Source of the DNA: Escherichia phage ECML-183-2
Strand: one strand, 5' to 3'
Sequence record: OL631481.1
DNA: 64,000 nucleotides
Positions 40,863 to 54,763 of the stretch are shown here, in pieces. The position numbers and the translations under genes were made by a program. The notes under the pieces were generated by a model that did no database searches, was not told the DNA's origin, and saw only the letters and a list, made by a program, of their open reading frames with translations. How positions within the stretch are numbered: position 1 is the first letter of the stretch; each line of letters begins with the position of its first letter.

Positions 40863-42677
40863 ATGAAAGATTTGTACCAAGATGTTTTTTCTTTTTTAGA
40901 TCGTACTTCAGAAACATACACTAGAGAGAATGCAAACAAACCTTCCCACCTCGTTAACACGCATAGGGATCTCTTGGCGGGGATTTTAAGCAAACATATG
41001 GCAATGACACAGATACTGCCAAAAAACTTGTCAGAGTGGCATACAGAAGGTTTTGGACATATTCACGACTTGGATTATCTACTCTCTCCTCTTACAAACT
41101 GTTGTCTTGTTAATTATCAAGATATGTTAGAGAATGGTTTTAAGATCGGAGCCGCACAGATAGAAAAACCAAAATCTATTGGGGTAGCTACCACAGTACT
41201 AACTCAAATTATCCAAGCTGTTGCCTCCAGTCAGTATGGAGGTCAGACGTGTGCGCACATTGATAAAGGTCTTAGTCCTTATGTTGAAGCTAGTTTCCTT
41301 AAAAACATGGAGATAACCAAACGTCGCTACGGTTGTTATGCAAGGAAAGAAGCCCTAGAAATGACCGAACAAGATGTATATGATGCTATGCAAACTCTCT
41401 TGTATCAGGTTAATACTTTAATGAGTGTTAATGGACAATCTCCTTTTATTACAATCAGTATGGGTCTGGATACCTCTGTTTTTGGCAGAATGATCACAGC
41501 TAACTATCTTAAAGTGCATAGTAACGGTCTAGGCAAAGATCATGTAACACCTGTATTCCCTAAAGTTATTTTCTTTTTACAAGAAGGTGTTAACATGAAA
41601 CCTAGTGATCCTAATTATGACCTTAAGCAACAAGCTTTGGCATGTTGTGCTGATCGTATTTATCCAGATTTTATTTCTGTTCCTTTGAACAAAGAAGTTA
41701 CGGGATCAGCAGATGGTACTGTTACGAGTATGGGTTGTCGTTCCTTTTTGTCGTACTATGCCACCGAACAAGGAGAAAAATATGATGGACGATTCAACCT
41801 TGGAGTAGTTTCTATCAATTTACCTCTGATGGCTGCGGAAGCGAGAAGTAAAGGAGAATCTTTCACCGACCTCCTTAATAAACATATGGAGATAGCCTAC
41901 GATGCTCACATGTTACGTGTAAACCGTATTAGGCATACCAAAGCATCTGAAAACCCTATTCTTTTCATGGAAGGGGCTTTAGCGCGTTTAAATGCCAATG
42001 ATGAAATTGGTGTTTTGTTTGAAGGTGGTTATGCTTCTATTAGTATTGGTTATGTAGGTCTTGCCGAAGCTTTGGAAATCCTTTATCCAGAAGAAAAAGA
42101 TAAAAAGGAACTTGGTAAAAGCATTCTGCAACATATGAAAGATGTGTGTGCTGTGTTTAAAGAACGATCTAATTTGGCGTTTAGTCTTTATGGAACTCCA
42201 GCAGAATCCTTGTGCTATAAGTTTGCAACAGCTTTAAATGAAAAATACCCAGGTTTGGTAGAAAGAGACTATCTTACCAACTCTTTTCACCAACCTGTAT
42301 GGTTGGTAACAAATCCTTTTGAAAAATGGGATTATGAAGCAGGTTTTGCACAGATTAGCAATGGTGGTAACATAAGTTATGTCGAAACACCAAACTTAAA
42401 GAATAACTTAGAAGCTTTGGAGACTTTAGTGGACTACGCTTATGAACATATTCACTATTTTGGTATTAATCAGCCCGTGGATCAATGCTTTAAGTGTGGT
42501 TTTCATGGAGAATTTAAGGCAACGGCTAAAGGGTTTGAGTGTCCTGATTGTGGCAACCATGAAGAAGAAACTATTTCTGTAGTTAGACGTGTGTCAGGGT
42601 ATCTTTCTGCCCCTAATTCACGCCCTTACAACAAAGGTAAAATGCAGGAAGTTTTGCAAAGGGAGAAACATCTTTGA
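40863..42677 (+). CDS. nrdD: anaerobic ribonucleoside-triphosphate reductase (class III)
   Basis: 604 aa; C-terminal Zn-ribbon CFKCG...CPDCG and glycyl-radical motif RRVSGYLS; followed by activase gene. Confidence 0.8.
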   Translation: MKDLYQDVFSFLDRTSETYTRENANKPSHLVNTHRDLLAGILSKHMAMTQILPKNLSEWHTEGFGHIHDLDYLLSPLTNCCLVNYQDMLENGFKIGAAQIEKPKSIGVATTVLTQIIQAVASSQYGGQTCAHIDKGLSPYVEASFLKNMEITKRRYGCYARKEALEMTEQDVYDAMQTLLYQVNTLMSVNGQSPFITISMGLDTSVFGRMITANYLKVHSNGLGKDHVTPVFPKVIFFLQEGVNMKPSDPNYDLKQQALACCADRIYPDFISVPLNKEVTGSADGTVTSMGCRSFLSYYATEQGEKYDGRFNLGVVSINLPLMAAEARSKGESFTDLLNKHMEIAYDAHMLRVNRIRHTKASENPILFMEGALARLNANDEIGVLFEGGYASISIGYVGLAEALEILYPEEKDKKELGKSILQHMKDVCAVFKERSNLAFSLYGTPAESLCYKFATALNEKYPGLVERDYLTNSFHQPVWLVTNPFEKWDYEAGFAQISNGGNISYVETPNLKNNLEALETLVDYAYEHIHYFGINQPVDQCFKCGFHGEFKATAKGFECPDCGNHEEETISVVRRVSGYLSAPNSRPYNKGKMQEVLQREKHL

Positions 42678-43971: not shown

Positions 43972-44628
43972 ATGACTATTAAACATATCTCTTTTGATGT
44001 ATGGAACACACTGATCACAGCAAACTCCAATTACGCAGACATGCGAGCCTGGACTATCGCAAAATATGGAGATATTACGGAAGTGGAAGCAAGAGCAGCT
44101 TATAAGAAGATCAAAAAGGAACTGGATAATGCAGCACTTCAAGGCAAAGCCGAGTGTGCAGCATACGCTTGGGAAAGACTTGGTTCTGAACTTGGGATAA
44201 CGCCTTGGAAGTCTGCAAAACTTCGTTTCGAGTGTGAACAGTGGTTCCTTAAGTTTCCACCACACGTAGCCGTGGATCTGCCGATGTACTTGCTGTATCT
44301 TTCAGGGCGTTATGATTTGAGTATTAAGAGCAATACCAACTTCATATCAGGGGATATCCTGCGTCGTGCTTGTAAGTTTGATAGTTGGAATTGTTTTGAG
44401 TTCACCCATTTCTCGGATGAAGCTTTACTTTGTAAACCAGATCCGCGATTCTTTGCTCGCACGCTCACGTATTCTCCGATCCCTCTGTTAGGGCACGAAG
44501 TATTGCACGTAGGCGATAGTGAAGAATATGATGGAAAATGTGTTGACTTAGGATTTAACTTCTGTCATATTAAGAACCCTAACGACTTACTAGAGAAACT
44601 TAAAAGAGGAGAAATTGTAAATGCGTAA
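43972..44628 (+). CDS. HAD-superfamily hydrolase-like protein
   Basis: motif I-like ISFDVWNTLI, motif III KPDPRFF, motif IV HVGDSEEYDG. Confidence 0.55.
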   Translation: MTIKHISFDVWNTLITANSNYADMRAWTIAKYGDITEVEARAAYKKIKKELDNAALQGKAECAAYAWERLGSELGITPWKSAKLRFECEQWFLKFPPHVAVDLPMYLLYLSGRYDLSIKSNTNFISGDILRRACKFDSWNCFEFTHFSDEALLCKPDPRFFARTLTYSPIPLLGHEVLHVGDSEEYDGKCVDLGFNFCHIKNPNDLLEKLKRGEIVNA

Positions 44629-45457: not shown

Positions 45458-45940
45458 ATGTTGAAGGTTGTTACTGGGAATCTGATCGATGCAGCGAAGA
45501 ATGGGGAAGTGAACGTTATAGCCCACTGTTGTAACTGTATGTGTAATATGGGTGCAGGGATTGCTCCGCAAATTAAACGAGCATTTCCTTATGCATATGC
45601 AGCCGACTTGGACACATCCGCAGGTGATCAAAGTAAGCTGGGTTCTTTTAGTTTAGGTGTGCCGGAGGAGGTGTCTGGCCCACTGGTTTATAACCTATAC
45701 GGACAGTACCGTTACGGGTATAACGGTAAAGGTCGTCAGTTGGACTATGATGCGCTGTATGATGCTCTTGAGGCTATGGCAAAGGATCTCCACAAATGGG
45801 TGAACACATCTGCCGAACATAAGATTGGTTTACCTATGATCGGAGCAGGGTTGGCAGGAGGTAATTGGGCTATCATCGAAGTGATGATTGAAGAAACTTT
45901 AGTAAAAGCAGGTCACGATGTGACTATTTATAAACTTTAA
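45458..45940 (+). CDS. macro-domain protein (ADP-ribose binding/processing)
   Basis: VNVIAHCCNCMCNMGAGIA and IGLPMIGAGLAGGNW resemble macro-domain ligand-binding loops. Confidence 0.65.
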   Translation: MLKVVTGNLIDAAKNGEVNVIAHCCNCMCNMGAGIAPQIKRAFPYAYAADLDTSAGDQSKLGSFSLGVPEEVSGPLVYNLYGQYRYGYNGKGRQLDYDALYDALEAMAKDLHKWVNTSAEHKIGLPMIGAGLAGGNWAIIEVMIEETLVKAGHDVTIYKL

Positions 45941-46253: not shown

Positions 46254-47228
46254 ATGCAACTTGGTTTCCCAATTATCGATGTAGTTGTTTTAGTTGGTAT
46301 TTTGGCATTGTCTATTGGTATCGATTTCTTTGGTCATAAAGAGAATAAAGAAATTGGAATTAAATCTGCTTTGCTTTGGTCTGTTTTTTGGATTGCTTTA
46401 GCTTTAGGATATTACGCATTCATTTGGGTAGAACATGGTAAAGAGTTTGCCGCGCTTTTCCTAAGTGGCTATGTGTTGGAAAAGAGTCTTTCTGTAGATA
46501 ACCTAATGGTGTTCATGGCAATTTTTGCAAGCTTTGGAATTAAGAGCACACATCTCCAACATAAGATTTTACTTTGGGGTATTGCAGGTGCCATTGTCTT
46601 CCGAGGTGTTTTTGTTGCAGCAGGGACAGCTTTGTTTAACCTGCATTGGTCGGTCCAAGTGTTGTTCGGTTTGATTGTAGCTTGGTCTGCCGTTGCTATT
46701 ATCAAAGGTGGTGACGAAGAAGAGGATATTGATTACTCTAAGCATTGGGCTGTTCGTTTAGTAGGTAAAGTTCTGCCTGTTCACAATGCACTGGATGGGG
46801 AAAAGTTCATCACCATTAAGAATGGTATTAAATATGCAACTCCTGCTCTTCTTTGTGTGTTTGTTATCGAGCTTACAGATATTGTCTTCTCTTTTGATTC
46901 AGTTCCGGCTGTGATCGGTGTGACACAAGAACCTCTGCTAGTTTATTCTGCAATGCTGATGGCTGTTCTTGGTTTACGTGCACTTTTCTTTGTGTTAAGT
47001 GTAGCTGTGAAATATCTGGTTCACTTAGAGAAAGCTGTTGCTGTGGTTCTGGTGTTTGTTGGTGCTAAACTTATGTATCACCCGTTCGGTGAAACACTTC
47101 ATGCCAAGTGGTCATTCCTCCCGCATGATATTTCCCCTAACGTAAGTCTGATGATTGTTCTAGGCACATTAGCTCTTGGTGTTATTGCAAGCTTTATCTT
47201 CCCTGAAAAAGAAGAAGCTGCTGTTTAA
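46254..47228 (+). CDS. TerC-family integral membrane protein
   Basis: multiple TM helices; EKSLSVDN and ELTDIVFSFDSVPAV motifs. Confidence 0.75.
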   Translation: MQLGFPIIDVVVLVGILALSIGIDFFGHKENKEIGIKSALLWSVFWIALALGYYAFIWVEHGKEFAALFLSGYVLEKSLSVDNLMVFMAIFASFGIKSTHLQHKILLWGIAGAIVFRGVFVAAGTALFNLHWSVQVLFGLIVAWSAVAIIKGGDEEEDIDYSKHWAVRLVGKVLPVHNALDGEKFITIKNGIKYATPALLCVFVIELTDIVFSFDSVPAVIGVTQEPLLVYSAMLMAVLGLRALFFVLSVAVKYLVHLEKAVAVVLVFVGAKLMYHPFGETLHAKWSFLPHDISPNVSLMIVLGTLALGVIASFIFPEKEEAAV

Positions 47229-48853: not shown

Positions 48854-49444
48854 ATGCATACCGAGAGAGACTTGCAACTCTTGTGGTGGGAAGTGATGCA
48901 GGAAATAAAAGAAGATTTTCCTGTTTACTACAACATGTTACGTGAAGCAGGATATAAAGCTTGTGTTAGAAACAAAGTTAATAACTCTTTCGGTTGGTGC
49001 AACTACCGAGATAAAATTGTTGTTGTAAATTGGCACTTGCATAAGAACTCTACAAGAGATATGATCGTGGATACAATGAAGCACGAAATTGCTCATGCTA
49101 TTGATGGTTGTATGGGTAAGTTTAGTCGGCACGGTGCTCATTGGCAAAAACTGGCAGCAGAATTAGGAGCTAATCCTAAAGCCACTTCCAAAGAGCCGTT
49201 GAACCACGAATATAAATATGTTCTTGTTCTGGTAGATAGGTTTGCGACAAGATGTGTTAGAGGTTATAATCGTAAACCTAATCGCATGTACCCAGGCAAG
49301 CAACCTAACATGTGGTTGAAATCAGATAAAGAAGGAACTGAAGGAAAATTATGGTTGTATAAATGGGATGATTGGGTTAAAGTAGCTAAAGAGTACGGTG
49401 TTTCACCATATATAAGAGATGCAGAAGAGGAGAATGAAGAATGA
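48854..49444 (+). CDS. SprT-like zinc metallopeptidase-domain protein
   Basis: HEIAHAI HExxH motif followed by GAHWQKL. Confidence 0.55.
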   Translation: MHTERDLQLLWWEVMQEIKEDFPVYYNMLREAGYKACVRNKVNNSFGWCNYRDKIVVVNWHLHKNSTRDMIVDTMKHEIAHAIDGCMGKFSRHGAHWQKLAAELGANPKATSKEPLNHEYKYVLVLVDRFATRCVRGYNRKPNRMYPGKQPNMWLKSDKEGTEGKLWLYKWDDWVKVAKEYGVSPYIRDAEEENEE

Positions 49445-50553
49445 CAAGTCCATTTTTAAAAGCAGCTACTGGTGGTCAGAAGAAGTCTGAAATGAGTGTA
49501 TTCGCTGCAACAACAGATGCAAGTAAATCTGTATTTGCTCCAAGTGTGTTAGATGCCAGTCCTGTTTATGCACCAGCAGCACCGCAAGAAGTTCCAGTTT
49601 TACCTTCTATGACCCGACAAGAGATCGAAGAGATTGGGGCAGAGGCAGGCACAACCTTGCGTTCCTTGAATGCCGAGGTATTAAAACATCAACGTAGTAA
49701 TCAAGGCGATCAGATGAGTGAACGACTCACAGCTTTGATTAAACAGGCAAAACAACTTGATCCAAACTCTATTAAACAAAGCAAAGGTATTACTAAACTC
49801 ATTAAAAAAGTTATGGGTATGAAAGAAGACCTGTTTGGGGAGTTTGATAATGTTAATAACCGTATTGAAGAGTTGGTAAAGAACCTTCAAATGGATATTC
49901 GCAAAGAAGAAGATTCCTTGGTATATCTTGAAAAACTACATCAAGCTATTGGACAATATGCTGCAAGTTTGAACCGAGATATGCAGCTTCTAACAGCAAC
50001 CTATGAAAAAGAAGAACAAGCTTTAGCTGCTCTTCCAGAAGATGCAGTAGAACAGCGACAAGTGATCCGAGACACTTTGGATCTTCTGGAGATTCGTATT
50101 GCAGATTTAAAGGCATTGCGTCTACTGTGTGTCCAAATGGGACCGCGTGTACAAGGTATGCAAAAAGTTTCTGCAAGCTTAATGCGATCTGCGCGTAACA
50201 TAGTAAATAATGTTATTCCTGCTTACTCTGCTAACTTCTCAATGTATATTGAAAGCTTACGTCAAATGAAAGCCGCAGAGACGCAGAATAACGTTCTTGA
50301 TGAATTTAACCTGGCAATTAAACTGGGTAGCGATCTTGCCACACAGAATCAGATCGAAGCAGCAGCCCTGGCTAACCGTCAAGTGCTCGATATTGAAACT
50401 CTGCGTCACGATCAGGAAAACTTGGTTAAAATGTTGGAAGAAACTAACCGCATCAATACGGAAGCCCGTGCTGCTCGTGTTGATTATATTAATGAAGTTC
50501 AATCTCTGGAAGACGGGATGGTAGCTGCTGTGAAACGAGGGCTTGGTAAATGA
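49441..50553 (+). CDS. TelA-like (toxic anion resistance family) protein
   Basis: 370 aa, all-helical; conserved-looking RQVLDIETLR segment; neighbours TerC/TerD/vWA genes. Confidence 0.5.
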   Translation: MTSPFLKAATGGQKKSEMSVFAATTDASKSVFAPSVLDASPVYAPAAPQEVPVLPSMTRQEIEEIGAEAGTTLRSLNAEVLKHQRSNQGDQMSERLTALIKQAKQLDPNSIKQSKGITKLIKKVMGMKEDLFGEFDNVNNRIEELVKNLQMDIRKEEDSLVYLEKLHQAIGQYAASLNRDMQLLTATYEKEEQALAALPEDAVEQRQVIRDTLDLLEIRIADLKALRLLCVQMGPRVQGMQKVSASLMRSARNIVNNVIPAYSANFSMYIESLRQMKAAETQNNVLDEFNLAIKLGSDLATQNQIEAAALANRQVLDIETLRHDQENLVKMLEETNRINTEARAARVDYINEVQSLEDGMVAAVKRGLGK

Positions 50554-50744
50554 GAATCCGTATCTATATAATTGATGAAGACATTGGTGTCCGTTATGAT
50601 GACGAAAAACGATTCGCACCGATGGGAGGTATATATCCCCCAAGTGTTCTAGCAGTTTGTCGTGATTGTTATATTTATGAAGGTTGTCGTAACTTCCGTA
50701 AATTCCAACTCCTTGCAGATATTGACTTCAATGAGGAGGAGTAA
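50550..50744 (+). CDS. hypothetical Cys-containing protein (64 aa)
   Basis: ORF overlapping neighbours. Confidence 0.45.
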   Translation: MRIRIYIIDEDIGVRYDDEKRFAPMGGIYPPSVLAVCRDCYIYEGCRNFRKFQLLADIDFNEEE

Positions 50745-50917
50745 TGAAAATATTACGAGTGAATATTGAAACTGCTTGGTGTGGATGCAATGAGGTTGTG
50801 GATATCGAAATTGAAGATGATATGTCTCAAGAGGATATAGAAGATCTTGCGCACGAAACCTTTCAGGACTATTGTAATTACGGGTTCCATATTTTAGAGG
50901 AGGAAGAGGATGTTTAA
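50744..50917 (+). CDS. small acidic protein (57 aa)
   Basis: GAGGAGGAG RBS; below the track cutoff. Confidence 0.4.
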   Translation: MKILRVNIETAWCGCNEVVDIEIEDDMSQEDIEDLAHETFQDYCNYGFHILEEEEDV

Positions 50918-51113
50918 CTACGATAACGACCCTAATATTATCCAGTTAACCCGACAAGAACTGATCACAATCATTGAAGATGCTTTTATTGATGGCTGGA
51001 ATACACAAGACAATGATTGGGGTGGACCCGAAGCTTTTCTGGAACATCATAAAGCTTATGGAGAATTTTGTGAAACCACTGTAGCTCTTGATAATCTGAA
51101 GGAGGGTTTGTAA
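50910..51113 (+). CDS. hypothetical protein (67 aa)
   Basis: AGAGGAGGAAGAGG RBS. Confidence 0.5.
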   Translation: MFNYDNDPNIIQLTRQELITIIEDAFIDGWNTQDNDWGGPEAFLEHHKAYGEFCETTVALDNLKEGL

Positions 51114-51676
51114 TGGGTTGTTTTAGTTTTTTGTGCAAAGAATCGGGCAAAGCTGCCCTTTCTACTTCTTTCGACGGATCACCTTGCTACCTCTTTCTTT
51201 TGAAGGACGGTGTTGTTATTGAAGAGATGTATGGCAACTATGATAGTTATGGTTGTGTTTTCTCTGGGAAGGAGGATGAAAATGGTGTTCGTGAACGATT
51301 TGAATGGGCTATGGATTGGAGTAAGGTTTGTGATTTGATGCATTCCTCAAATCCAAGGGACGGTATCGCTATGGTGCTGGAAGAGTACTTTACAGGTGAA
51401 ATCCCTACAGAACAATCTGACGGAGATCCTAACCAAGGTTGGGGTGATGGTGAAGAAGATCCAGATTGTTTTTTCAGCACAGAAAAGAATAAGTTTAAAC
51501 GTGTTGACAACCCTTATCACAAAGTGCATAATACTCTCATTGAAACAGAAGATGACAAGATGGAAATTGAAGAAGATGATCCTCTTGTAACACTTCCTAT
51601 AAGTGAGTTACAAAAGATCACTAAGGAAGCTTACGATTTGGGCTTCAAAATTGGTAGAGGAGGTATGCGTGTTTAG
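51113..51676 (+). CDS. hypothetical acidic protein (187 aa)
   Basis: GAAGGAGGG RBS. Confidence 0.5.
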   Translation: MGCFSFLCKESGKAALSTSFDGSPCYLFLLKDGVVIEEMYGNYDSYGCVFSGKEDENGVRERFEWAMDWSKVCDLMHSSNPRDGIAMVLEEYFTGEIPTEQSDGDPNQGWGDGEEDPDCFFSTEKNKFKRVDNPYHKVHNTLIETEDDKMEIEEDDPLVTLPISELQKITKEAYDLGFKIGRGGMRV

Positions 51677-51947
51677 ATTCAATATTCAAGAAGAAAAAAG
51701 TCAGGATTTACCTATTGCTTTCGAAGATCTTGACGTAGGGGCCACATTTATGTATTATGATGCCTATGAAGACGCAGGGTTGGATACCTACCGTAACTTG
51801 GTGTTCATTAAAAATTCCACAAACAGTGCGATTTGTATTAATGGATCACTAGCACAACGAGGCTATACTCATTGCATCCCACCAGATACAAATATGGTGG
51901 AAGTAGATTTAGAAGTTACCAATATTACACTTAAGAAGGAGAAATAA
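51669..51947 (+). CDS. small paralog protein preceding vWA gene
   Basis: GTG start after AGAGGAGG; shares DLDVG.TF.Y..A..E.GLD motif with 52969-53238. Confidence 0.45.
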   Translation: MFRFNIQEEKSQDLPIAFEDLDVGATFMYYDAYEDAGLDTYRNLVFIKNSTNSAICINGSLAQRGYTHCIPPDTNMVEVDLEVTNITLKKEK

Positions 51948-51948
51948 T

Positions 51949-52743
51949 ATGTCCGAGAAAATCAGCCTGAAAAAACGTCAAGAAAACCTTGCTTTCTCTC
52001 TGAAAAAGAATAAGAACCTGAATGAAGGTAAGATTGTTCTTCGTGTAGCATGTGCTCTAGATATTTCTGGTAGTATGCACGGTCTATATTCTAGTGGGGT
52101 AGTGAGTGATTTTGTAGGTAAACTGCTTCCTTTTGGTATGCTGTTCGACGATAATCAACAAATTGATATGTGGGCCTTCAATACGAGTTCCCAAGAGCTT
52201 ACTCCAGCAACAGCAGACGTTTACGATGACTATGTTGGTAAATGTATGCGTAATGTTCGTATCGGAGGTGGAACAAATTACGCCCCTGTAATGGCAGATA
52301 TCTACGATGAGTATTTTGGCACTGTTACCAAATATATTACCACTAAACAAGTGGTACAAGAGGAGGCTCCAAAGAAAGGCTTCTTTAATCGTCTGCTTGG
52401 TAAAACTGAAACAGTGTCTGTAGAGCGTGAAAAAGTTGTAGCTGTATCTGAACCAGGTGCTGATGTTACCCCTGGTGTTGTATTCTTCCAGACGGATGGT
52501 GAGAATGGTGATCCTAGTGCTGTTCGTCGTCTTATTGAAGAGAATAAGAATAAACCTATTTATTGGTTCATGGTTGGCGTTGGTAATGAGAAGTTTGGCT
52601 TCCTGAAAGAACTGGCAAATGCTTATGATAATGTTGGTTTTATTGGCATTAAAGATTTAGACTTGACAGATTCAGAACTTTATGACAAACTCTTATCTGA
52701 GGAGTTCGGAGAGTGGGTTGTTAAAGTAGGTGCTAAAAAATGA
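51949..52743 (+). CDS. vWA-domain protein (TerY-like)
   Basis: MIDAS motif DISGSM; GGTNYAPVM; sits in ter-like cluster. Confidence 0.65.
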   Translation: MSEKISLKKRQENLAFSLKKNKNLNEGKIVLRVACALDISGSMHGLYSSGVVSDFVGKLLPFGMLFDDNQQIDMWAFNTSSQELTPATADVYDDYVGKCMRNVRIGGGTNYAPVMADIYDEYFGTVTKYITTKQVVQEEAPKKGFFNRLLGKTETVSVEREKVVAVSEPGADVTPGVVFFQTDGENGDPSAVRRLIEENKNKPIYWFMVGVGNEKFGFLKELANAYDNVGFIGIKDLDLTDSELYDKLLSEEFGEWVVKVGAKK

Positions 52744-52988
52744 TCGACGAGCTTGCCTCTCAAGTCGTAGAAAATTATTGGCGCGAGAGAGAAGCTTTCA
52801 TTATGCGCAGTCTCAAAGAGTATTTCATTGGGACTGTGCGAATGGAAGATATTGTAAGTAGAGTAGAGATTCATGTATGGCCCGATTATGAAGAATGGGT
52901 TGACAAAGAAAATGAAAATGCTATAATTCTTCGTATATACAAACCGGAGATAACATTAGGAGGAAGAAGTGTTAAACTTCGAAATTGA
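52740..52988 (+). CDS. hypothetical protein (82 aa)
   Basis: AGGTG RBS. Confidence 0.45.
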   Translation: MIDELASQVVENYWREREAFIMRSLKEYFIGTVRMEDIVSRVEIHVWPDYEEWVDKENENAIILRIYKPEITLGGRSVKLRN

Positions 52989-53238
52989 TGAGCAAAAAGT
53001 AAATAAACGATGCCTTACCATTAAAGATTTGGATGTAGGAGATACTTTCGTCTATGAAAATGCATTTGACGAAAATGGTTTAGACCTTAGTGAAATCATT
53101 GTTTATTTAAAAGTAGATGATGGGGAAAATGATTATTCTGCTGTAGAACTAAACCATCATGCACAATTAGTATCAATCCAAAACACATCTAAGCTTTTGG
53201 AAGTAGAATTGACTGTAACTGGTATTACACTTAAATAA
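52969..53238 (+). CDS. small paralog protein preceding TerD gene
   Basis: GTG start after AGGAGG; paralog of 51669-51947. Confidence 0.45.
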   Translation: MLNFEIDEQKVNKRCLTIKDLDVGDTFVYENAFDENGLDLSEIIVYLKVDDGENDYSAVELNHHAQLVSIQNTSKLLEVELTVTGITLK

Positions 53239-53253
53239 TAGAGGAGACAAAAG

Positions 53254-53856
53254 ATGACTGATAAAATTTCCCTGAAAAAAGGCTCTAGCGAAAAAATTTC
53301 CCTGAAGAAAGTTGCTCCGGCTCTGAAAGAACTGCGCCTGGAATTCTCTTGGAAATCTGATTCTAAACTGGATCTGGATGTAAGTGCACTGGTTTGTCGT
53401 CATAATGCCGCTGGCAATCCTGAAATGCTGTCCGCACGTCATCTGGTTTGCTATGCTAACAAGTTTGATCCTGAACGTTCTACCTTCGCTGGTGACGATG
53501 TTCGTGATGGAACTGGGAGCATGGAGCAGATTGATATTACTCTGGCTAAAATCTCTCCTGATGCACAAGAGATTGCCTTTGTTCTGACCATTGATGATGA
53601 TACAGGTCTGAAACGTTTTGGTCATGCTTCTGAAGGTATGCTTAAAATCTTCGATTCCGAGCGCAATGTGGAAATTCTGGATTTTGACTTCCTGGCTCCT
53701 GAAGTAGCTGGCAACACAATCTGCCACGTGGCTTCCCTGGTTCGTGAAGATGGGGAATGGAAGCTGAAAGCATATGGTGTAGGTAAAGCTGGTCTGGATA
53801 TTTGCGATGTGGTGATGGCCTTCGGTGGTAAAAAAGAATGGTATGAATGTCCATAA
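53254..53856 (+). CDS. TerD-domain protein
   Basis: ISLKK...LDLDVSALV...GDDVRDGTG...FVLTIDD pattern typical of TerD; strongly host-like codon usage (CTG, AAA, GAA). Confidence 0.75.
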   Translation: MTDKISLKKGSSEKISLKKVAPALKELRLEFSWKSDSKLDLDVSALVCRHNAAGNPEMLSARHLVCYANKFDPERSTFAGDDVRDGTGSMEQIDITLAKISPDAQEIAFVLTIDDDTGLKRFGHASEGMLKIFDSERNVEILDFDFLAPEVAGNTICHVASLVREDGEWKLKAYGVGKAGLDICDVVMAFGGKKEWYECP

Positions 53857-53874
53857 TAATTAACAAATGATTTT

Positions 53875-53894
53875 GAGGGGGAGAAATCCCCCTC
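53875..53894 (+). terminator. strong hairpin, probable terminator
   Basis: GAGGGGG-agaaat-CCCCCTC followed by TTGCAAT (imperfect U-tract). Confidence 0.4.
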
Positions 53895-53923
53895 TTGCAA
53901 TAAAGCCTCTATCGTGTTATACT
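53895..53923 (+). promoter_or_regulatory. extended -10 promoter
   Basis: TTGCAA ... TGtTATACT upstream of cell-wall hydrolase gene. Confidence 0.45.
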
Positions 53924-53955
53924 AGAAGTTCGTTAACTTAAAAAGGAGGCAAAAT

Positions 53956-54477
53956 TTGCTGATAAAAAACTTTGTAACAGTTGCGTTACTATCCTTAACT
54001 GCTTTTACATTTACACCTGTTGTGGCGAAAGCCGAAGCTGCAAACGTAAAAACCGCTAAAGTAGTTCACAAATGTACAAAGCAATATAATGATAAAATTC
54101 TATTAGCTTGTGCAATTTACGCAGAAGGTCGTGGTCTGGGTAAAAAAGGAATGAATGCCGTTGGGAATGTGGTAATCAACAGAAGAAATGATGCCTACTT
54201 CCCTAACACAGTCAAGGGAGTCTTGTTCCAGAAAGGGCAATTCTCATATGCGAAAACTTTTAACGTAACAGAGAAAGATAAGTGGCAGGAAGCAAAAGCA
54301 ATAGCGGAGCGTTTACTTTATTTAGAGAAACATTTTCCTGAATTGCGGTCTGTTTTAGATGTTACTAAAGGTGCTCTATACTTCAAGAAACGGAATATAA
54401 GGACACACTGGGAACGTGATATGCGTCTTGTTTATCGAGATAAAGTGCATGGTTTCTATCTACCAAAGGGGAGTTAA
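53956..54477 (+). CDS. secreted cell-wall hydrolase (SleB-like)
   Basis: TTG start after AAGGAGG; signal peptide; CAIYAEGRG...VVINRRND...FQKGQFSY pattern. Confidence 0.6.
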   Translation: MLIKNFVTVALLSLTAFTFTPVVAKAEAANVKTAKVVHKCTKQYNDKILLACAIYAEGRGLGKKGMNAVGNVVINRRNDAYFPNTVKGVLFQKGQFSYAKTFNVTEKDKWQEAKAIAERLLYLEKHFPELRSVLDVTKGALYFKKRNIRTHWERDMRLVYRDKVHGFYLPKGS

Positions 54478-54478
54478 A

Positions 54479-54763
54479 ATGCAAGAAGATAATACTGTTG
54501 TTGTAGCAAGTTACCTGGTTGTCGGTCTTACCGAAGAGGATGTATACTACACCCGTAAGCATTTAGAAGCATACGCTACTTTGTTTATGGAAGATGAAAA
54601 GGATGTAGATAAATATAGCATTGATATGATCAACGACAGTATTTATCCTTGTATGGTTCTTAAAGTAGATGCTGTATTGTGGGAGCGTTTTGCAAGGACT
54701 CATGATGCTGTAGAATGCTCCGCAGTAATGTCTCAAAACAATATTTTAGGGGAGATTCACTGA
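54479..54763 (+). CDS. hypothetical protein (94 aa)
   Basis: start at ATG after AAAGGGGAG RBS. Confidence 0.45.
   Translation: MQEDNTVVVASYLVVGLTEEDVYYTRKHLEAYATLFMEDEKDVDKYSIDMINDSIYPCMVLKVDAVLWERFARTHDAVECSAVMSQNNILGEIH

Follow-up and report, generated by a model that had tools for sequence, protein, structure and literature searches.

What two small proteins are doing beside the tellurite-resistance-like (Ter-like) genes of a coliphage is the question raised by one segment of the genome of Escherichia phage ECML-183-2. Within the 64,000 nucleotides (nt) of sequence record OL631481.1 that were analysed (hereafter the window, numbered from its first letter), a gene for a vWA-TerF-like protein and a gene for a TerD-domain protein are each directly preceded by a short open reading frame (ORF) with a GTG start, here called A and B respectively. 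A first-pass annotation, made from the sequence, had taken the two ORFs for paralogues and had proposed that each encodes the dedicated partner (chaperone, adaptor or regulator) of the Ter-like protein encoded after it. TerD, TelA and the vWA domain of TerF type are believed to come together in a complex close to the membrane, and we know of no established mechanism for Ter (tellurite resistance/phage inhibition), even after decades. Both ORFs are already catalogued as hypothetical proteins, in a family (phrog_11278) to which neither a function nor a context has been assigned. New here are the link of this family to vWA and TerD, its predicted fold and its variation in copy number; it is a lineage-specific and dispensable companion of the phage vWA–TerD pair.

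The paralogy stands. Protein A (51669..51947, + strand, 92 amino acids) and protein B (52969..53238, + strand, 89 amino acids) align over their full length at 34% identity in a pairwise BLASTP comparison (E 2e-14), and both match phrog_11278 from end to end, A with residues 1-92 on profile positions 1-92 (E 4.2e-51) and B with residues 1-89 on positions 1-89 (E 7e-45). The core DLDVG.TF.Y..A..E.GLD that had been read from the pair is likewise shared, except for its E column, which differs between the copies, so that the motif is better written DLDVG.TF.Y..A.[ED][DE].GLD. The only positions that about 90% or more of the members retain across the wider family are F4, L21, G24, F27, D39, K48, N58 and V83. 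The conserved positions belong mainly to the hydrophobic core, with G24, D39, K48 and N58 in addition, and no catalytic or metal-binding signature, and no cluster of His, Cys or Asp, is seen among them. We also considered the Asp of GLD as a ligand for the metal-ion-dependent adhesion site (MIDAS) of the vWA protein, an idea weakened by its distribution: D39 is present in 16 of 17 aligned sequences, but three members of a wider alignment carry N, S or F there (GLN, GLS, KIF). Family members are acidic (isoelectric point 4.3-5.5) and about 87-93 amino acids long, and neither a signal peptide nor a long hydrophobic segment was seen in them by eye on the sequences, without a predictor.

Searched exhaustively with a HMMER profile, 1.84 billion representative proteins gave 20 matches at E<=1e-3, of which 17 are stand-alone proteins of 87-93 amino acids, two are short fragments and one is spurious. 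The match to a 1191-amino-acid Fn3-repeat protein, its score built from eight weak repeats, was dismissed as chance. Word-indexed searches of 5.8 billion proteins gave 22 cluster representatives. That bacterial genomes lack the family is judged from the 1.84-billion-representative profile search and from a third word-indexed search, which turned up no further member. The family is present in 126 of 50,697 phage records, in roughly 70 of them with two copies and in roughly 56 with one. The phrog_11278 entry and several deposited hypothetical proteins (ESCO13 gp221/gp224, phi92 gp174 and UniProt K7QLS7 of phAPEC8) are the same proteins or direct orthologues. Neither A nor B matches an NCBIfam model, a PDB sequence or one of the Ter domains themselves (TerD PF02342, TerC PF03741, TelA PF05816, vWA-TerF-like PF10138); in Pfam, at E<=0.1, A has no family and B only a sub-threshold hit to DUF5006. 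PADLOC-DB, at E<=0.01, gave no match for A, B, vWA, TerD, TelA or the neighbouring 82- and 187-amino-acid ORFs described below, and no mention of these small proteins was found in searches of the literature.

Both ORFs have the features of translated genes. Their GTG codons lie behind strong AGGAGG-type Shine–Dalgarno sites, as the first-pass annotation had noticed: GAGGAGG at 51657..51663 (+) before A and AGGAGG at 52958..52963 (+) before B, each 5 nt from its start (51669 and 52969) and each annotated as a ribosome-binding site in ESCO13, the GenBank/RefSeq record of which includes both GTG-initiated coding sequences as hypothetical proteins. In relatives the conserved start is always preceded by a Shine–Dalgarno site, and GTG is exchanged for ATG (ATG in phiWec190, in Klebsiella phage 05F01 and in all metagenomic relatives; GTG in phi92). 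Against their orthologues, A and B show ratios of nonsynonymous to synonymous substitution (dN/dS) of 0.2-0.4 (0.21-0.34 for A alone) at 54-71% DNA identity, consistent with coding sequence under purifying selection. Because start and ribosome-binding site are conserved, dN/dS is 0.2-0.4 and the fold is predicted with confidence (see below), we take A and B for real genes. That the GTG ORFs are untranslated, and owe their likeness to a duplicated non-coding or regulatory segment, is a notion for which the GTG starts speak and to which we attach almost no weight, since the likeness lies at the protein level while orthologous DNA has diverged so far, relatives start at the same position with ATG, and the open frame is intact in every genome examined except Escherichia phage EF1-1. 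In EF1-1 (PQ571289) A is split by an apparent frameshift (L002 3704-4046) and annotated as a 65-amino-acid coding sequence, and the B copy (L002 5071-5340) is labelled 'RNA ligase', for which the record offers no supporting evidence.

An AlphaFold2 model of A, built from a 21-sequence alignment (predicted local distance difference test, pLDDT, 83.5; predicted template-modelling score 0.74), suggests a small SH3-like beta-barrel, and the BFVD model computed independently for the orthologue of B in phAPEC8 superposes on this model with a template-modelling score of 0.81-0.83. A and B are predicted to be SH3-like beta-barrels and would be cytoplasmic and non-enzymatic. The termini are strand-like and conserved (F.F.I and V.L.V..I.L) and are modelled at lower confidence. 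A Foldseek search of the model against the PDB gave a best E of 0.6 and generic structural neighbours only. HspQ, a specificity factor for Lon, and the DUF4176 chaperones of type VII secretion toxins, small beta-barrels as well, give weak structural scores, share no sequence similarity with the barrels and belong to different systems. The 'TelA' of PDB entry 9dcr is a secreted toxin, distinct from tellurite TelA.

FeoA is a barrel of about 75 amino acids encoded directly upstream of its partner FeoB. This arrangement lends some appeal to the idea that A and B are ligand- or metal-responsive regulators, in which a barrel of the FeoA/DtxR C-terminal SH3-like type would sense a metal or a nucleoside-like Ter signal and gate the activity or expression of vWA and TerD. 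The surrounding genes fit such a role as well, for a phosphoribosyltransferase (PRTase) and a Macro domain stand in the Ter context beside a weak HAD-like match, and Iyer et al. (2021; PMC7824862) link genes of these types to the synthesis of a signal derived from a nucleoside or nucleotide. We consider a sensing function improbable all the same: the Pfam scan at E<=0.1 found no match to FeoA (PF04023) for A or B, a conserved His, Cys or Asp cluster is lacking and the conserved residues chiefly make up the hydrophobic core, and the structural similarity is weak and non-specific. With no sequence relation, generic structural scores and unrelated partners, the likeness to FeoA is one of gene arrangement only.

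The evidence that ties the barrels to Ter comes from gene order. In the window, A lies directly before the vWA-TerF-like gene (51949..52743, +, 264 amino acids; PF10138 E 1.6e-37; phrog_5359) and B directly before the TerD-domain gene (53254..53856, +, 200 amino acids; PF02342 E 3.2e-28; phrog_5698), as had been noted at first pass. Read from the sequence, the TAA stop of A (51945-51947) is followed by the vWA ATG at 51949, and the end of B at 53238 by the TerD ATG at 53254. The window is that of a Phapecoctavirus: its region 49400-54500 shares 98.4-98.8% identity with the 20 records that match it best and is found at 95-99% identity in 64 phage records, mostly of Phapecoctavirus (phAPEC8-like coliphages, subfamily Stephanstirmvirinae). 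Context could be read for 13 lineages distinct in sequence, and in each of them the barrel gene adjoins vWA-TerF-like and/or TerD, the adjacency persisting down to 22-30% identity to A; no member away from vWA/TerD was found among the contexts examined. Between TelA and vWA the remaining small ORFs come and go, whereas the barrel stays. Records named 'Campylobacter phage' B15, A150 and C3 (MG065650, MG065639, MG065656) and 'Pseudomonas phage' PsgM04F (OR584014) are near-identical here to Escherichia coli Phapecoctavirus, Justusliebigvirus or phiWec-like phages, so that either the hosts given for them may be wrong or the phage preparations may have been contaminated.

The number and the place of the copies vary from lineage to lineage. 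The order A–vWA–82-amino-acid ORF–B–TerD of the window recurs in phiWec190/PsgM04F/L009 and in L021; phi92-like Justusliebigvirus and Klebsiella phage 05F01 have A–vWA–TerD, with no small ORF before TerD. Six metagenomic lineages (L011/L012, L013, L014, L018, L019 and L020) carry a single copy between vWA and TerD, another context (L010) has one copy before TerD with the upstream part cut off, and in one further lineage (L015, L016 and L017) two tandem copies, x1 and x2, stand between vWA and TerD. In L019, one of the distant relatives with the order vWA–barrel–TerD, a protein resembling PARP, with WGR, PARP_reg and PARP domains, is encoded a few kb upstream of TerC (L019 1-431).

Some phages do without the family altogether. 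With the family profile and all hmmsearch filters off (--max), no barrel was detected out to 3.5 kb from TerD in two Stephanstirmvirinae that retain intact vWA and TerD, Klebsiella phage phi1_175008 and Citrobacter phage Tr1, or in Caulobacter phage CcrColossus, which has TelA–vWA–DUF475–TerD. The profile search was also negative for a bacterial-type faecal contig with TelA–TerD–TerD–TerD, so that similar upstream partners were found neither at bacterial-type ter genes, as represented by this contig, nor in Caulobacter jumbo phages. The association is therefore asymmetric: vWA and TerD occur without the barrel, but the barrel has never been seen without vWA or TerD. One dedicated partner per effector, as first proposed, is not supported by this comparison, given the single copy before vWA only in phi92-like phages and 05F01, the single copy between vWA and TerD in six metagenomic lineages, the placing of both copies before TerD in the L015–L017 lineage, and the retention of vWA and TerD without a detectable copy in phi1_175008 and Tr1.

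In a neighbour-joining tree of about 90 columns and without bootstrap support, which is indicative only, the A-type (pre-vWA) and B-type (pre-TerD) copies form sister clades, and the single-copy outgroups from between vWA and TerD fall outside both. We infer from this that the place between vWA and TerD, that of B, would be ancestral, that a duplicate was probably put before vWA in a common ancestor of Phapecoctavirus and Justusliebigvirus, and that B may later have been lost, together with the 82-amino-acid ORF, in phi92-like phages. The tandem x1/x2 pair appears to be a separate duplication.

The barrels are also embedded in what looks like a tightly packed operon, in which the genes from the 187-amino-acid ORF through TerD are all co-directional. 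The 187-amino-acid ORF (51113..51676, +; phrog_14928, no Pfam match) lies directly upstream of A and overlaps it by 8 nt; a gap of 1 nt separates A from vWA, the ribosome-binding site of which (AAGGAG) is encoded by the C-terminal KKEK codons of A; and the 82-amino-acid ORF (52740..52988, +; phrog_22387) overlaps the vWA stop (ATGA) and, by 20 nt, the start of B, which is followed by TerD after 15 nt. No genome without copy B was seen to have the 82-amino-acid ORF, and its dN/dS of 0.24-0.33 indicates purifying selection. It was rejected on sequence as a third, diverged barrel (hhalign probability 0.15), its single-sequence AlphaFold model being uninformative (pLDDT 53). A segmental duplication of the 187-amino-acid ORF plus A into the 82-amino-acid ORF plus B was rejected too, the 187- and 82-amino-acid proteins being unrelated. 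An ORF is annotated in the position of the 187-amino-acid ORF before A in phi92 (gp175) and phiWec190, a likeness of position only; in L021, although A and B are both present, no ORF of comparable length precedes A.

Inside the 82-amino-acid ORF, about 41 nt before the GTG of B, lies a perfect sigma-70 consensus with an extended -10 element (TTGACA-16 nt-TGnTATAAT; 52900..52927, +). All 12 hexamer positions and the TG are kept in ESCO13, phiWec190, L009 and L021 while spacer and flanks diverge, and phages without B have a similar promoter-like site directly before TerD; this pattern suggests a candidate promoter for a B+TerD transcription unit at 52900-52927. A second promoter-like site (TTGACA-17-CATAAT, 11 of 12 positions; 51504-51532) lies inside the 187-amino-acid ORF, 165 nt upstream of A, and a site of this type stands at equal distance in phi92, phiWec190 and L009.

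What, then, do the barrels do? The reading that we favour, and to which we give an even chance, makes A and B non-enzymatic subunits with an accessory role in the phage vWA(TerF-like)–TerD module, where they would act as adaptors or regulators by protein–protein contact. Because the copies are fixed neither in number nor in position, and vWA and TerD exist without them, the barrel is most likely a dispensable accessory subunit, one that has been duplicated in the Phapecoctavirus lineage. Several points weigh against such a role in the module, beyond the slender basis of the tree. Some close relatives, phi1_175008 and Tr1 among them, do without the barrel, which is hence not essential to vWA or TerD. 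The promoter hexamers sit in coding sequence, where protein constraint could add to their conservation. Finally, all contexts belong to one broad collinear lineage (TerC...TelA...vWA...TerD...SleB-like hydrolase...DnaB...PolA), so that common descent, and not selection, may account for part of the conserved adjacency.

It is this last point that gives the main rival its footing, namely that the barrels are syntenic hitch-hikers: ordinary small early or host-takeover proteins, such as an acidic inhibitor of a host protein, with no functional tie to vWA or TerD and held in place by a collinear lineage and a shared operon. The two barrel-less phages that keep vWA and TerD are as this would predict, many phage host-takeover proteins are small and acidic as these are, and no family or defence-system annotation contradicts it. 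We nevertheless think such hitch-hiking somewhat unlikely, since the barrel is retained down to 22-30% identity among neighbouring small ORFs that are freely gained and lost, both duplications (A/B, and x1/x2 in L015–L017) left the new copy within one gene of vWA or TerD, and neither the rest of the 64-kb window nor the fetched loci contain a further copy.

If A and B are indeed accessory subunits, the barrel would bind vWA and/or TerD as an adaptor or as a regulator of assembly. A possible docking site is suggested by the two larger proteins, whose folds are otherwise unrelated and which share a basic N-terminal motif, encoded at 51949-52010 in vWA and at 53254-53315 in TerD (MSEKISLKKRQENLAFSLKK and MTDKISLKKGSSEKISLKK respectively; the TerD N-terminus reads KISLKKGSSEKISLKK). 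The vWA protein, which also has a DxSxS MIDAS motif (ALDISGS), begins with KISLKK...FSLKK, and a motif of the KISLKK...SLKK type was seen at the N-termini of vWA and TerD in all fetched orthologues. The acidic barrels might dock on this basic segment, and its recognition would explain how one family can pair with two unrelated folds. In the most elaborate form of the idea, which as a whole we regard as a long shot, the barrels would be assembly adaptors on a strand-forming KISLKK...SLKK segment, perhaps by beta-strand augmentation through their F.F.I and V.L.V..I.L termini, and would nucleate a Ca2+/Mg2+-dependent sub-membrane Ter complex for superinfection exclusion, with A and B subfunctionalized towards vWA and TerD respectively. 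Any binding by the barrel, the partner concerned and the sequence in which copies arose and were lost are inferences, as would be a chaperone or regulatory function.

The vWA–TerD module would in turn be part of a larger Ter-like cluster, and, judged by domain content, the Ter-like system of the window is fairly complete. After an anaerobic ribonucleotide reductase, NrdD (40863-42677), come the HAD-like match (43972-44628, +; Pfam E 4.3e-4, weak and below the gathering score), a ComF-like PRTase (PRTase_3, PF15610; 44621-45448, +), a Macro domain protein (45458-45940, +; the last two by Pfam), TerC (46254-47228, +; Pfam E 3.2e-40) and, within 48854-50553, an SprT-like metallopeptidase followed by a TelA-like protein (49441..50553, +; PF05816 E 3.2e-33; phrog_5890, 'tellurite resistance'), co-directional with the rest of the cluster and lying upstream of vWA and TerD. 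A SleB-like cell-wall hydrolase follows the vWA/TerD block. Between TerD and the hydrolase, phi92 (gp171, L003 5788-6390), phi1_175008 and Tr1 (L022 4165-4779 and L023 4170-4814) have an extra gene for a protein of about 200 amino acids, missing from the window; considered as an additional TerD, it had no Pfam match.

TerC, TelA, a TerF-type vWA, TerD, a PRTase and a HAD protein, the last of them represented in the window by the weak match only, make up the phage Ter systems described in jumbo and related phages (PMC7824862) and in Klebsiella phage phiKp34 (PMC8386662), for which a role in a sub-membrane stress response or in superinfection exclusion has been proposed. Iyer et al. (2021; PMC7824862) suggested that such Ter sets help a phage to compete with others that superinfect its host, with TelA and the TerF-type vWA forming sub-membrane structures and TerD as a ligand-binding component. 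Neither description mentions a small barrel component such as the window has, and vWA and TerD are separate genes in the window, unlike in the TerF fusion.

If the barrel should prove unrelated to vWA and TerD, the finding would shrink to one more uncharacterized family of small phage proteins. Otherwise, a lineage-confined barrel encoded beside vWA and TerD would offer a cheap experimental handle on what the phage version of Ter assembles into and on the purpose that it serves.

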